A stretch of 54,035 nt of DNA from NCBI GenBank assembly GCA_964446935.1, contig CAYUQI010000007.1:1-54035 (forward strand), in the 5' to 3' direction. This DNA comes from an uncultured Pseudomonadota bacterium. GTDB lineage: Bacteria; Babelota; Babeliae; Babelales; RVW-14. The notes beneath the pieces were generated by a model that saw nothing but the letters and a program-made list of their open reading frames with translations, ran no database searches and was not told where the DNA came from. Positions within the stretch are counted from its first letter, which is position 1. Each line of letters opens with the position of its first letter. A program made the position numbers and the translations under genes. Shown in pieces: positions 6,778-53,455 of the stretch.

Positions 6778-7215
6778 ATGAAAAAAATAATTATAATTGG
6801 TGGATTGGTGCTGATTACGGCTGTCGGAACTCGTGGTTTTGCGATGGATGACTTTGATACGGGAGGTAGGCACGCTAGACTTCTGCAAAGCTTAAAAATT
6901 CTCGGTTTAAAGGCCACCATTAAAGAAGCTATTGATAGTCTTACTGCCGGAGAACTCAAGGCGCAATATGAAAGCAAAAAAGAAGAAATGAAAAAATGGT
7001 CAGACGGGCAATTTGTTGATTTCAAAATTAAAAATTTACAACGGTTGAAGTGCGACACAACACAGTGGTCTTTGATTTCTAAAAAATTAGTTGAGAAACA
7101 ACCGTTGACCGATGGTGAAAACACGATGCTTAAACAATGTAAGACCGATTTGTCTCAACAATTAGAAAGTGCTTGCGATATTGTAACCCGTGCTTTGCAG
7201 GGAGATTTTGAATAA
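6778..7215 (+). CDS. Secreted J-domain-like protein (HPD-less), paralog of 7248..7700
   Basis: RBS GAGG; signal MKKIIIIGGLVLITAVGTRGFA|M; SLKILGL...ELKAQY; KKWSDGQFVDFKIKNL. Start moved from 6709. Confidence 0.65.
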   Translation: MKKIIIIGGLVLITAVGTRGFAMDDFDTGGRHARLLQSLKILGLKATIKEAIDSLTAGELKAQYESKKEEMKKWSDGQFVDFKIKNLQRLKCDTTQWSLISKKLVEKQPLTDGENTMLKQCKTDLSQQLESACDIVTRALQGDFE

Positions 7216-7247
7216 ATACAATGATTGTTTCTAGTGAGGTTTTGTCT

Positions 7248-7700
7248 ATGAAAAAAATGGTGATGATTTTGAGCGTGGTGTTTGTGCTTTGTGTTGGACA
7301 TAATTGTTTGTTTGCTGCAGAAAAGGCTATTGATAAGGACAAGGAGCGTGTATTATCTAGTTTAGAAATTTTGGGTATTGAGGAAAGCGCTTTGAGCAAT
7401 CTTACGCAAACAGATCTTCATGATATTTATAACGAAACGTTAGAAATATTGAAAAAATGGTCGCATGAGCAGTTTATTGATTTCAAAATTAAAAATTTAG
7501 CTAAGCAAAGAGAATCTGATAAAGAAGATGATGCTATAAAAATGTGGCGTGAGATCCGTAATAAATTATTGTCTAAATCTCCTTTAACTCAAGAAGAAAA
7601 AAGCAAGGTTAATTTGTTGGTGAATCAGTATAAAAAGTTGTTGCCGCAACAGATAAAAGGAGCTTACGAATCTCTCAGTAGGGCAATAGAGATTAAATAG
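7248..7700 (+). CDS. Secreted J-domain-like protein (HPD-less), paralog of 6778..7215
   Basis: Signal MKKMVMILSVVFVLCVGHNCLFA; SLEILGI...DLHDIY; KKWSHEQFIDFKIKNL; IKGAYESL. Shares 23 identical bp with the paralog (7016-7038 vs 7477-7499). Confidence 0.65.
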   Translation: MKKMVMILSVVFVLCVGHNCLFAAEKAIDKDKERVLSSLEILGIEESALSNLTQTDLHDIYNETLEILKKWSHEQFIDFKIKNLAKQRESDKEDDAIKMWREIRNKLLSKSPLTQEEKSKVNLLVNQYKKLLPQQIKGAYESLSRAIEIK

Positions 7701-7708
7701 AGTTGATC

Positions 7709-8371
7709 ATGATTATAACAATTGATGGACCGGTTGCGAGTGGAAAAAGTAGTGTTGCCAAACGTTTGGCACAAAAGCTTGGTTTTTATTATCTAAACAC
7801 TGGGTTGTTGTATCGTGCGATTGCCTATGTGTTGAGTAACCGTGGAATAACAGCCGATTCGGCCCAATCTCTTACCACGGATGATCTTTTTTTTGTTTCT
7901 GATCTTGTCTATCGATATGAACATGATACCCCTTCAGTCATATATCATGGTGAAAATATTACACAATGTCTTTATGCTGACTCTATCGGCCAATTAGCGT
8001 CTATTTTTTCAGCCCAAAAGATTGTTCGTGATGCATTACTTGCATTACAACGCTCAGTAGGCAAGCAGCATGATGTTGTTGTTGATGGACGTGACTGTGG
8101 CAGTATTGTTTTTCCTCGTGCAACTGTTAAATTCTTTTTAACTGCAGATGTTGATATAAGGGCGCAACGCCTTTTTAATGATGCCACAAGAAAACGAGGA
8201 CAAACATTAGAAGAAGCAAAGGCGCACATACGTGAGCGTGACCTGCGTGATCAAACACGCGCGGTTGCGCCACTTGTTATTCCACATGATGCCATTTTGG
8301 TTGATAATACCGATATGGATCTTGAACAGACAGTGGAATTTTTCCTAAGACATGTTCCTATTTCGCTTTAG
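7709..8371 (+). CDS. cmk: Cytidylate kinase
   Basis: IITIDGPVASGKSSVAK, LNTGLLYRA, VVVDGRDCGSIVFP.A.VKFFLTA, RDLRD..RAVAPL. Confidence 0.96.
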   Translation: MIITIDGPVASGKSSVAKRLAQKLGFYYLNTGLLYRAIAYVLSNRGITADSAQSLTTDDLFFVSDLVYRYEHDTPSVIYHGENITQCLYADSIGQLASIFSAQKIVRDALLALQRSVGKQHDVVVDGRDCGSIVFPRATVKFFLTADVDIRAQRLFNDATRKRGQTLEEAKAHIRERDLRDQTRAVAPLVIPHDAILVDNTDMDLEQTVEFFLRHVPISL

Positions 8372-9602
8372 CAATATCCTTATTTAATGCTGGAATAGTA
8401 GTCTTCGTAATAGCCTTCTTTTGAGTACTGGTAAGCAGAGAACTTTTTGCGACATTTTGCAGCACTGTTAAGAATGCTTGTAATTGCTTCTTGGTTGCTT
8501 TTGTTCTGTTTTTAAAAATGGTATTTAATGCGGCAGCGCATTTGTCATAAACGCTCTTGTCATATGTTTTGCCTGTTGCTCCAGTTATTATCTTTGCAAA
8601 TGCAGTAACTTGTTTATCGAAAGTTTTTTGTTTAACGGCGGCATCAATTGCTTTTATGGTGTTTTTAACGAGCGTGGCGTCCACTTTGGCTGTAGTGGTT
8701 GTTGCGGAAGCTTTTGCAATGTCACTTGTGAGTGTTGAAATAAAGCTTGCAAGGAAGACCGCTTTTTGAGAGCTATCCAAAAGAGAGCTTGCAACACCTG
8801 CATTCAAAAGATCAAGAATCTTTTGGAGCTGTACCTTGTCTGTAGTTTTCCTGCCTTGAAACAACGTATTAAGAGCGTTGGCAAACTTTTGGTACACCTC
8901 TATGGTGAAGGTTTTGCCGGCTGCATTTGTTACGATGAGTGCAAGCGCAGTTATTTGTTCATCAGCAGTTGCTTTTTTGAGTGCTGCATCAATAGCAGCA
9001 AGTGTGTCTGAGATAAGTGTTGTAGATGGTGCTGCTCCTGCTGTGGAAGCGATTTCGGCGGTCACCTTTGTTATAAGGTTTGTTGTTATAAAAGTCTTTT
9101 GTGCATCGGCCAAAAGGGTGCTGGCAATACTAGCATTCAAAAGAGTAAGAAGCTTTTGGAGTTGCGCATTATTAGTGGTTGTTCTACTTTGAAAAAGTAG
9201 GCTTAAGGCTTCGGCGAATTTATTGTATATTTCATTGATATATGTTTTGCCAGTTGCATTCGTGATAATTTCATTGAATGCCGTTACCTTTTCATCGAAT
9301 GTTGTTTTTTGCATTGCCGCTTCAATTGCCTGCTTTGCTGCAGTTTGAATCTGTAGGTCATTTTTAATTGTTGTTTGATAACCATTGGTGGTTGTTTTGT
9401 CTGCTGGCGCAAGGAGGTTTGTTTCGAGCGCTGCTGCCATGAGTAATGAAAGTTCGTTTAATGATGCACTATCTTGAAGCTCAGCTCGTTGGTTGTAGTA
9501 CGCTGTTATTTGCGTAAAAAGCTCGTTGGTTTCTGTTTGAGAAAATACTGGGATGGCGATTAATAATGATAACGAATACGTTATAAATAGAATATGTTTC
9601 AT
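8358..9602 (-). CDS. Secreted Thr/Ala/Lys-rich protein with three ~100-aa helical repeats
   Basis: Signal peptide; three copies of IDAA.K..TFD.QVTAF..IITNA.GKTY....Y.KFA.ALN.LF..R......LQK.L.LLN....S.LL...QK. Confidence 0.8.
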   Translation of the reverse strand: MKHILFITYSLSLLIAIPVFSQTETNELFTQITAYYNQRAELQDSASLNELSLLMAAALETNLLAPADKTTTNGYQTTIKNDLQIQTAAKQAIEAAMQKTTFDEKVTAFNEIITNATGKTYINEIYNKFAEALSLLFQSRTTTNNAQLQKLLTLLNASIASTLLADAQKTFITTNLITKVTAEIASTAGAAPSTTLISDTLAAIDAALKKATADEQITALALIVTNAAGKTFTIEVYQKFANALNTLFQGRKTTDKVQLQKILDLLNAGVASSLLDSSQKAVFLASFISTLTSDIAKASATTTTAKVDATLVKNTIKAIDAAVKQKTFDKQVTAFAKIITGATGKTYDKSVYDKCAAALNTIFKNRTKATKKQLQAFLTVLQNVAKSSLLTSTQKKAITKTTIPALNKDIAKAK

Positions 9603-9630
9603 GGTAATACTACTCCTTTGTTAACTGTTA

Positions 9631-52240: not shown

Positions 52241-52276
52241 GGTAGTACGAATAAAGAAAAACACGGCGAGGCGAGT

Positions 52277-52786
52277 ATGAGCGAAAAAAAGGTTATTCTG
52301 GGAGTTGATCCAGGCTTTCACGTTACCGGGTATGCCATCATTGAACATTCGACTCGTGTGCTGTTGCACGATTGTGGATATTTAAAACTAAGTCCACAAC
52401 ACGCATTGCCTCAACGAGTAGGGCAATTCTATTCATTTTTTATAGAAAAAATTAAAATTCATGGAATTACACACATAGCTCTGGAAACATCATTTTTAGG
52501 CAAAAATGCACAGACTTTTTTAAAGTTGGGGTATTTACGAGGGATTTTGTATTTGCTGGCTGATCAACATCATATGATGCTTACTGAATTTGCACCGCGT
52601 GAAATTAAAATGGCTGTGACGGGCTTTGGTGGCGCGAGTAAGGATCAAGTAGCAGCCATGATGGTGCGCCTGTTTCCTCGCTTAACTGAATTTGGGTCGA
52701 TAGAGCGTAACGATGTTACTGATGCACTTGCCGTTTGTTTGTGTGGAGTATGGCAACAGTCGCCGCTTGCTCAGTATGTGCGATGA
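52277..52786 (+). CDS. ruvC: Crossover junction endodeoxyribonuclease RuvC
   Basis: ILGVDPG, ALE..F, IKMAVTGFG.ASKDQV..M, DVTDALAV.LC. Confidence 0.95.
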   Translation: MSEKKVILGVDPGFHVTGYAIIEHSTRVLLHDCGYLKLSPQHALPQRVGQFYSFFIEKIKIHGITHIALETSFLGKNAQTFLKLGYLRGILYLLADQHHMMLTEFAPREIKMAVTGFGGASKDQVAAMMVRLFPRLTEFGSIERNDVTDALAVCLCGVWQQSPLAQYVR

Positions 52787-52827
52787 GGTACGCAATTGCT
52801 TTTGAGTTATTGCTCTGCGGATACATG

Positions 52828-52865
52828 AAAAAAGCCTGGCGACTTCAACATCGCCAGGCTTTTTT
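52828..52865. terminator. Bidirectional terminator
   Basis: AAAAAAGCCTGGCGA-cttcaaca-TCGCCAGGCTTTTTT between convergent genes. Confidence 0.88.
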
Positions 52866-52882
52866 ATTAGATGATATCAAAA

Positions 52883-53455
52883 TTATTGATTCAAAAAATT
52901 GTTGTTGTCGAATTTATATTCTTTAAATGTTGGATCAAACCAAAAAATATTTTCCAAAAGGGTTGTTGCAAGTGCTGCAGCTTTATCTTGTATATGATTA
53001 CCTTGAACGTCGATTCCGACGAGGAAGGCTTTTTTCAGAACAACAAGCCAAGGGGAATCGCCTGTTATATCCGTTAATGACAAAGTGTTTGTGCTCCTTT
53101 TAGCACAGCCAACAAGAAAGCATACAAGCTCACCGAATCCACTTATAAAATCTGGACAAATTTGTTGATTACCCATACAGCTTTCTATGGCGAGCCAGAA
53201 TTTTTTGCTGCGTTGTTGTTCCGATGTTTGATCCATCCATTGATTAATCTTTTTGTTTTTAAGATCGCAATAAACCGGGTTTTTTGCGCAAAAAGCAGCA
53301 AAGCTCACTCCGGATATGTTGCTCTTGTTTTTATAGGCATATTTAACGTTGTCTGCAAAAATTCTGATCTTTGTTTGGTAATCCATAGCGTATGAATTAG
53401 CGCCGAATGTTATTGCTGTGATTGAAACAAGTAATGCTCGAATGAGTGGTTTCAT
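52883..53455 (-). CDS. Secreted hypothetical protein
   Basis: Start moved to MKPLIRAL (RBS AAGGA); signal ...ANSYA|MDY; ends ...IFWFDPTFKEY... Confidence 0.72.
   Translation of the reverse strand: MKPLIRALLVSITAITFGANSYAMDYQTKIRIFADNVKYAYKNKSNISGVSFAAFCAKNPVYCDLKNKKINQWMDQTSEQQRSKKFWLAIESCMGNQQICPDFISGFGELVCFLVGCAKRSTNTLSLTDITGDSPWLVVLKKAFLVGIDVQGNHIQDKAAALATTLLENIFWFDPTFKEYKFDNNNFLNQ

Follow-up and report, generated by a model that had tools for sequence, protein, structure and literature searches.

At the signal peptidase I sites of well-studied bacteria, the first residue of the mature protein (position +1) is mostly Ala; Asp, Glu, Gln, Ser, Thr and Lys are also common there, and Met is rare. 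A bias of a different kind is known as the Q-rule of the Bacteroidetes, where Gln stands at +1 of signal peptidase I substrates, is cyclised to pyroglutamate, and is present in 60-80% of leaders (PMC5837995, PMC10653852). The genomes of Dependentiae carry leaders on up to 44% of proteins and encode about 100 ankyrin proteins each (PMC6561590, PMC4378268), and the genome papers for both Babela massiliensis and Chromulinavorax destructans report many leaders, one mentioning "somewhat atypical ones" in one family and the other giving a share of 44% of coding sequences. We found no description of Met at +1 in these genome papers or by full-text literature searches; a groundwater multi-omics paper in which SignalP was run on Dependentiae does not mention the residue after the cleavage site, the literature searches yielded no proteomic data, and the Q-rule papers mention neither TM6 nor methionine. 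Here we report that, in a 54 kb stretch of DNA (contig CAYUQI010000007.1, analysed over its whole length and termed the window) and in related loci, Met directly follows the predicted signal peptidase I site of exported proteins (Met+1) far more often than its background frequency. We propose the name "M-rule" for this pattern, in which about one quarter of the window leaders, and 15-22% of those in relatives, keep Met as the first residue beyond the signal peptidase I site.

The window has a GC content of about 40% and contains about 52 genes by a simple longest open reading frame (ORF) call, 31 of which passed a filter for N-terminal export leaders. Its DnaB protein was 64-81% identical to those of metagenome-assembled genomes (MAGs) of Candidatus Babeliales and candidate division TM6 (L003-L013), with no more than 50% identity to any other, and on this protein evidence the window organism is a Babeliales/Dependentiae (TM6) bacterium. 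The DNA and RNA sequencing runs that contained window sequence came from bioreactor and activated-sludge metagenomes.

Enrichment was assessed on loci rather than whole genomes, 44 of them Dependentiae-like and 97 serving as controls from other phyla. A DnaB scan of genome contigs supplied 11 Dependentiae loci and 69 loci of other phyla, while a ThrRS scan of metagenomes supplied 32 loci with at least 57% identity and 28 lower-identity loci of similar GC. Cleavage sites were chosen by a home-made picker that combined textbook signal peptidase I preferences at -1 and -3, hydrophobicity from -13 to -7 and polarity from +2 to +8, and that was blind to the residue at +1, using positions -13 to -1 and +2 to +8 only. 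It replaced an earlier rule-based picker that lost two thirds of the leaders, and an unsupervised expectation-maximization alignment of cleavage sites was discarded after it drifted onto the hydrophobic core.

Met was the commonest +1 residue in the Dependentiae-like loci, being the top pick in 30 of 205 unique leaders (15%), a 9.2-fold excess over composition (1.6% Met in the mature parts), and in 45 of them (22%) when near-ties were allowed. Control leaders had Met+1 in 4 of 209 top picks (1.9%) and in 9 of 209 with near-ties (Fisher P = 1e-6 and 6e-8, respectively); these matches were lipoproteins (LSGC/M, the slash marking the predicted cut) or membrane segments, and none was of the A/M-acidic kind. 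Counted by position, Met occurred 30 times at +1 in the Dependentiae-like leaders, 2-6 times at each of +2 to +12, and 0-10 times at -8 to -1 (Poisson P = 3e-16), while the control profile was flat. The excess did not depend on picking of sites, in that Met followed 20 of the 228 sites obeying the -3/-1 rule in the window and L003-L013 (5.7-fold, P = 6e-10) versus 4 of 424 in controls. With one member retained per family, 22 of 129 families (17%) had Met+1 (P = 2e-16). Among the metagenome loci, Met+1 was present in 18 of 105 leaders where ThrRS was at least 57% identical and in 0 of 33 from the lower-identity, low-GC loci (GC 0.34-0.48), so that low GC is not the cause. As a positive control, the picker recovered Gln at +1 in 8 of 23 leaders from five Bacteroidota loci, compared with 8% elsewhere (P = 0.001). 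Gln was present at +1 in 14 of the 205 Dependentiae-like leaders (1.5-fold), among which Ala, Ser and Gly were also common at this position. Met+1 is thus far above background in the related loci, and the pattern, first suggested by a sequence-only reading of the window, is confirmed as real and extends across the Dependentiae.

Apart from the +1 residue, the leaders with Met were unexceptional. The Met and non-Met leaders shared a median N-terminal (n) region charge of +2 and n-region length of 6, differed neither in leader length (median 23-24 residues), charge nor protein length, and the two classes showed no difference in C-terminal membrane anchors. Position -1 of the 45 Met sites was occupied by A (21), G (10), S (8), C (4) or T (2), so that A, G and S accounted for 39 of 45, and position -3 was mostly L (12), A (12), I (8) or V (5), together 37 of 45; non-Met sites likewise used A/G/S at -1 and A/L/V/I at -3. 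By these residues, Met and non-Met junctions are the same kind of site. All ten window leaders for which a Met+1 junction had been claimed passed the filter for a basic n-region and a hydrophobic core, and the twin-arginine motif of Tat leaders was absent from the n-regions of all ten (RR in 0 of 10). A lipoprotein (signal peptidase II) leader was also considered and rejected, given that Met, not Cys, is at +1 and that -2 is unrestricted (F, V, D, S, Q, N, Y). No LepB-like protein was present in the loci examined. The Met+1 leaders may well be ordinary Sec/signal peptidase I leaders with a lineage-specific +1 rule, an assignment that we adopt provisionally from their composition.

The residues that follow Met were also biased. 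Asp, Glu, Asn or Gln followed in 23 of 45 cases (51%), compared with 43 of 160 (27%) at +2 of other sites (P = 0.004); +3 of the Met sites was acidic too, and +4 was basic more often than in other sites. Small residues that permit removal of Met by methionine aminopeptidase followed it in 3 of 30 top picks, against 37% expected from composition (P = 0.0009), a depletion that was not significant relative to non-Met sites.

We also considered how the Met behaves within families, although the families available for this comparison were small and the leader set included some false positives. In family A, the C-terminal domain of an 851-aa window protein recurs in four exported proteins of about 200 aa, with members 98%, 68% and 47% identical to the first. 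At their junction only L, Q and I (at -9, -6 and -3) and the Met were invariant, and the next 14 residues had no invariant column; the junction of the 851-aa protein itself is LVA/MQ. Family B comprises the window proteins 27440, 28481 and 29707 together with P0005, at 26-63% identity. Here G-x-A-x-A/M was invariant and the next invariant column lay about 45 residues on. Orthologues in L098 and L099 kept the Met, while -1 and the residues from +2 onward had changed. Since the Met stayed invariant in two small families while its flanks diverged, the alignments speak for purifying selection acting on Met as part of the junction. At least two candidates in relatives were false positives: L093:16698, seemingly a conserved Met+1 family, is an internal segment of a multi-pass membrane protein, and in L005:4636 the hydrophobic core ends well before the Met, in whose place L004 has Ile.

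Translation of the Met+1 genes begins at the leader. A core Shine-Dalgarno motif preceded 68% of their leader starts (mean duplex energy -4.6 kcal/mol), whereas it was present in the 20 nt before only 4% of the +1 ATGs (mean -0.5 kcal/mol; P = 8e-9 vs leader starts), whose duplex energy was the same as that of non-Met +1 codons and random internal ATGs. Within the window, the leader starts of 27440 and 28481 have AAGGAGG in front of them, and those of the others have similar motifs. True starts were AT-rich and weakly folded, with a mean minimum free energy of -6.6, compared with -9.8 at +1 ATGs and -9.0 at internal ATGs. Metatranscriptome contigs cover positions 28432-28808 without a break, taking in 49 nt upstream of the leader ATG, the leader and the junction of 28481, and public gene calls include the leaders too. 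On the combined grounds of Shine-Dalgarno motifs, weak mRNA folding, RNA contigs and public gene calls, the leaders are translated; a spurious upstream extension is excluded and a classical internal start at the +1 ATG is unlikely. GTG and TTG were not enriched at +1, a comparison of low power in that only 9% of Shine-Dalgarno-backed starts use these codons. The RNA contigs, X3 and X5, came from activated-sludge metatranscriptomes and matched 28432-28808 and 29287-29617 at 99-100%. Both 28481 (Met+1) and 29302 (non-Met) appear to be expressed in situ, with DNA carry-over as a possible source of these contigs.

We tentatively favour, as an explanation, a selected and lineage-wide preference for Met+1 at signal peptidase I sites, with a host-compatible N-terminus as its favoured role. 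The precursor would be translated from the leader's own Shine-Dalgarno-led start, as documented above; it would then be exported by Sec and, judging from the sequence context, cut after the small residue at -1; and the mature protein would consequently start with Met, mostly as Met-Asp/Glu/Asn/Gln. Taken together, these three steps are likely. In a fourth step, the exposed end would mimic the unprocessed N-terminus of a nascent eukaryotic protein. N-termini of the form Met-Asp/Glu/Asn/Gln are substrates of NatB acetylation in eukaryotes, and Met is stabilising under the N-end rule. An end of this kind would fall into the NatB class, would be stabilising in the Arg/N-degron pathway and would be left untrimmed by methionine aminopeptidase, and could in this way protect those proteins that reach the host cytosol. 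Such a protective, host-compatible N-terminus is conceivable, but we hold it with considerable doubt, because Met+1 showed no class specificity and because Ala, Ser and Gly ends are also stabilising.

Several observations weigh against this explanation. NatB acts mainly on nascent chains, and acetylation of a delivered protein is only hypothetical; Thr ends too, like those with Ala, Ser and Gly, are stabilising, so the N-degron argument is not unique to Met. Ankyrin repeats were as common with Met+1 (7 of 45 proteins) as without it (16 of 108), and the frequency of Met+1 was the same whether a protein had cross-locus homologues (13 of 58) or not (32 of 147). The share of leaders with Met+1, only 15-25%, is far below the 60-80% of the Q-rule, and was uneven among loci, from 0 of 9 (L003, L121) up to 3 of 4. 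Nor was Met fixed in larger families, being present in 6709 whereas the paralogue 7221 carries Ala there; the ankyrin cluster contains both classes. Finally, the cleavage sites are predictions, made by the home-made picker and not by SignalP.

Functional class bears directly on the proposed role. The exported ankyrin protein of the window (21922) has LVA/AE at its junction and no Met+1. Other domains in the Met set were eukaryote-like (RING, WD40, LRR, PLA2_B), and such domains were present in the non-Met set too. A role specific to the host cytosol is weakened because Met+1 separates neither the eukaryote-like nor the lineage-specific proteins. Conserved exported families had a genuine Met+1 in 0 of about 5 cases, a count that is not significant with so few housekeeping periplasmic proteins. 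The suggestion in the sequence-only reading that Met+1 marks true effectors is accordingly not supported, given the equal ankyrin shares, the ankyrin protein 21922 without it and the irrelevance of homologue status, while its suggestion of a host-like N-terminus stands as a possibility, in keeping with the excess of Asp/Glu/Asn/Gln and the depletion of small residues after Met.

A stronger form of the favoured explanation is a "mature N-terminus code", in which Met-Asp/Glu/Asn/Gln exposed on a subset of exported proteins would be read after export, by the host or by a second-step bacterial delivery machine. In its host variant, the reading may consist of NatB acetylation or of escape from N-degron surveillance. 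We regard such a code as unlikely.

The preference could instead reside in the enzyme alone, if signal peptidase I of the Dependentiae has an S1' pocket that favours cutting before Met and nothing further depends on the exposed Met. This would account for a Met exactly at +1 that is conserved together with -1 and -3, and for Met and non-Met leaders that are otherwise alike, with no functional class favoured. However, an enzyme with this preference predicts that most substrates comply, yet 15-22% do, and the Asp/Glu/Asn/Gln bias after Met is left unaccounted for; we consider it quite unlikely that the enzyme is the whole explanation. Equally little credence attaches to the Met being a fossil start, that is, the old ATG of leaderless genes (host-derived or arisen de novo) that gained a leader upstream and whose start codon has not yet decayed. 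The well-supported window Met+1 proteins are orphans with no Pfam domains or distant relatives, such domains as can be recognised in the Met set (Ank, RING, WD40, LRR, PLA2_B) are of eukaryote-like type and Met is gained or lost within families, all as such a history would predict. Yet a loosely placed relic should be encountered at +2 to +6 as well, whereas the peak is at +1 only; a relic Shine-Dalgarno motif preceded 0 of 45 Met codons; the Met was invariant where the flanks were down to 26-47% identity; Met+1 was no commoner in lineage-specific than in conserved proteins; and GTG and TTG were not enriched at +1, although this last is a weak test.

Alternatively, the small/Met-acidic junction could be a mark read after Sec export by a bacterial machine (type II secretion, vesicle loading or another protease) that selects periplasmic proteins for exit. 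That only a subset of leaders carries it, that +2 to +4 after Met are biased (acidic at +2 and +3, basic at +4), and that the window contains, at 45614-46994, prepilin-type genes of a type II or type IV pilus-like system are consistent with such a mark. Its surroundings, though, look like any ordinary signal peptidase I site, no class was enriched and no machine has been linked to it, and we know of no bacterial system that reads a mature N-terminus in this manner; this alternative is decidedly unlikely.

Less probable still is a working internal start, with the ATG giving rise in the cytoplasm to a leaderless isoform of the same sequence as the mature protein. ATG was enriched 9-14-fold at +1, few small residues follow the Met, as would retain it on a cytosolic product, and about 40% of genes in these genomes have no clear Shine-Dalgarno site, so that initiation without one is possible. 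Against this, the +1 ATGs had a Shine-Dalgarno motif in 4% of cases and mRNA structured like that at internal ATGs, and the invariably small residue at -1 would be unexplained; the signal-less isoform raised in the sequence-only reading is therefore disfavoured. An artefact, with translation truly starting at the Met and the leader being an open frame that happens to extend upstream in AT-rich DNA, or with the excess due to paralogy, could draw on the home-made picker, on the three paralogous window cases and on at least two false positives in relatives, but it is largely refuted, to the point of being negligible, by the Shine-Dalgarno motifs and unstructured mRNA at the leader starts, the conservation of leaders in homologues, the empty low-GC controls, the signal left after family collapse, and control matches that are lipoproteins or membrane proteins.

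Returning to the tentatively favoured Met+1 preference, the window itself is a moderate example, with seven solid and three doubtful cases. All ten small/Met strings claimed in the sequence-only reading were present in the ORF translations, although the positions attached to them are ORF boundaries, not junctions, and six of the ten match Met-Asp/Glu/Asn/Gln. Under the blind picker, five of these junctions were the best site and two were near-ties, so that most Met+1 sites were retained and the cleavage was not generally placed elsewhere; SLCG/M, SLQA/M and SART/M were doubtful. The enrichment claimed for the window held, while the share of secreted ORFs, put at roughly a third, came down to 7 of 31 well-supported cases, about a quarter. 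Likewise, the cases had been described as mostly unrelated, and the seven good ones do represent five independent families, but 27440, 28481 and 29707 are paralogues. At 2.2% Met, the probability of five top picks among 31 leaders is P = 5e-4 and that of three independent top picks among 29 is P = 0.025, so the excess within the window alone is significant but modest. No Pfam domains were detected in the well-supported window Met+1 proteins.

The three paralogues are on the forward strand. The 173-aa orphan encoded at 27440 has a C-terminal hydrophobic tail; its leader MELFKKFLLVAAFAAVSAGNADA and the Met codon (27509-27511) span 27440-27511, NADA/M is the best blind site (5.7), and the leader ATG has AAGGAGG 7 nt before it. 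Its 185-aa paralogue at 28481 has the leader MELFKKLVLVATLAVVAGNASA, which with the Met codon (28547-28549) spans 28481-28549, NASA/M as the best blind site (5.7), and again AAGGAGG upstream. The third, a 141-aa paralogue at 29707, has the leader MVNYIKKLLLVSAVIAGMGTAVA, spanning 29707-29778 with the Met codon (29776-29778), and TAVA/M as its best blind site (5.5); its homologue P0005 has GTAGA/M, after which the residues differ. A profile search with the 27440 family against 1.8 billion representatives returned one extra member only. Two strain-variable spots lie inside this paralogue cluster. In related strains represented by DNA runs X1 and X2, the 5′ half of gene 29695-30132 (29701-29973) is replaced by 170-212 unrelated letters, and a stretch between 27440 and 28481 (28090-28208) is replaced by 102 letters.

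Two further best-site cases are on the reverse strand. Leader MHIFLKILKITLITCCLFNVSINA and the Met codon (48734-48736) span 48734-48808 and begin a 200-aa orphan (48808) with no Pfam match, for which SINA/M is the best blind site (4.8) and AAGGA lies upstream of the leader ATG. Leader MKPLIRALLVSITAITFGANSYA and the Met codon (53384-53386) span 53384-53455 and begin a 190-aa orphan (53455) adjoining ruvC, with NSYA/M as the best blind site (4.1); public gene calls start at the same leader (190 aa), and a database search with this protein (52886-53455) returned a 99% twin only. The slot downstream of ruvC is occupied in each genome by a leader protein unrelated to those of the others (an orphan, a pentapeptide repeat protein, a WD40 protein or a RING plus ankyrin protein), and the genes found there in relatives were rejected as orthologues of the 53455 gene. 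Its members are window 52883-53548, L006:2076-2684, L011:12358-13026, L012:12506-13138, L009:4997-5581 and L004:12128-12895, of which four of six have a small/Met junction, making this a variable island at a fixed chromosomal position.

The two near-ties are 6778 and 25155. The former encodes a 145-aa orphan, for which a database search returned a single relative, a 97% twin. Its leader MKKIIIIGGLVLITAVGTRGFA and the Met codon (6844-6846) span 6778-6846 on the forward strand; RGFA/M scored 3.9 against 4.0 for AVG/T, a rival site that would leave almost no c-region, and the paralogue at 7248-7700 has LFA/AEK at the junction. The latter encodes the 851-aa orphan of family A on the reverse strand, with leader MKFHFKKLYLIFILLSHLFTLVA and the Met codon (25084-25086) spanning 25084-25155; TLVA/M scored 3.6 against 3.9 for SDA/T, and the four proteins of about 200 aa with the same C-terminal domain all have small/M junctions. 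This domain, the C-terminal ~120 aa of the 851-aa protein (22600-23000, reverse strand), is Cys/His-rich (CxCNxC...DRFHxIPP...GAYVFIY...HCxHAMFHK), has no Pfam match, and is common to the 851-aa protein and several exported Dependentiae proteins of about 200 aa (L007:15316-15996; P0006-P0008).

Among the doubtful cases, leader MKFGGIVLGSVGVFIHVASLCG and the Met codon (21293-21295) span 21227-21295 on the forward strand, and SLCG/M, though present as a string, is outside the two best blind sites, VAS/L (2.8) and SLC/G (2.6). Leader MKNQVSCMAMLIVCVSLQA and the Met codon (41202-41204) span 41145-41204, also on the forward strand; SLQA/M scored 3.1 against 5.0 for ARA/C, which lies ten residues past it, and the MLISSL that follows the cut, from the Met on, is still hydrophobic. 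A weak case, on the reverse strand, is leader MVTIHIKKLRSLIVPCLLSLVFQSART with the Met codon (16184-16186), spanning 16184-16267, in which SART/M scored 1.9 and the best site 2.3. It belongs to a 733-aa Tectonin-domain protein (16267), from which the paralogues 3728 and 9631 differ at the aligned position. The reverse-strand region 3728-17209 contains seven adjacent exported paralogues with Tectonin beta-propeller and Methyltransf_FA (DM9-like) modules and a repeated helical tail, a locally expanded, eukaryote-like family of lectin type.

Elsewhere in the window, the forward-strand gene at 34997-35728 encodes a probable lipoprotein, MRLNIKFLMMIVLVVAPG/C, with the only clear lipobox of the window (VVAPG/C) and a homologue in L122. 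The three prepilin-type genes at 45614-46994 (forward strand) have leaders ending in G/F-x-L-x-E and adjoin two genes for exported Pro/Glu-rich proteins (43124-45536, reverse strand), an arrangement kept in L003-L005, L007, L008, L011 and L012. The cluster appears to belong to a type II secretion or type IV pilus-like system.

The Met after the leader offers a sequence handle on how exported proteins of Dependentiae reach the host and survive in it, and, being exact in position, it predicts mature N-termini. For annotation, starting such genes at the internal ATG would lose the leader. If functional, Met+1 would be a second phylum-wide "+1 rule" after the Q-rule of the Bacteroidetes, and if the N-terminus code were true, bacteria would have a first counterpart to PEXEL-type logic, where an address or passport is made by processing.

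The Met+1 rule is undescribed in the literature searched, and otherwise these leaders resemble known Sec/signal peptidase I leaders. They share with the classical system the n-region, hydrophobic core and c-region, the -3/-1 rule and the median length of 23-24 residues, and differ from it in the frequency of Met (1.9% of control top picks vs 15% in Dependentiae-like leaders). Their predicted ends are like NatB-type N-termini in that six of the ten in the window, and 23 of the 45 in relatives, are Met-Asp/Glu/Asn/Gln, but eukaryotic ends of this type arise on nascent ribosomal chains, whereas here they are predicted to arise by proteolysis in the bacterial periplasm. In the PEXEL system of Plasmodium, processing after a leader likewise gives host-directed proteins a new, defined N-terminus; the protease, motif and compartment are all different, and reading by an export machine is hypothetical here. 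The Q-rule is similar in being a phylum-specific, single-residue bias exactly at +1 of ordinary Sec/signal peptidase I leaders, seen with the same statistics, and the resemblance is by analogy only. The residue is Met rather than Gln and is present in 15-25% rather than 60-80% of leaders; the Q-rule has a glutaminyl cyclase that modifies the exposed residue, whereas no Met-modifying enzyme is known here and none was searched for; and Dependentiae, unlike the bearers of the Q-rule, are protist parasites, in which the exposed end may act in the host.

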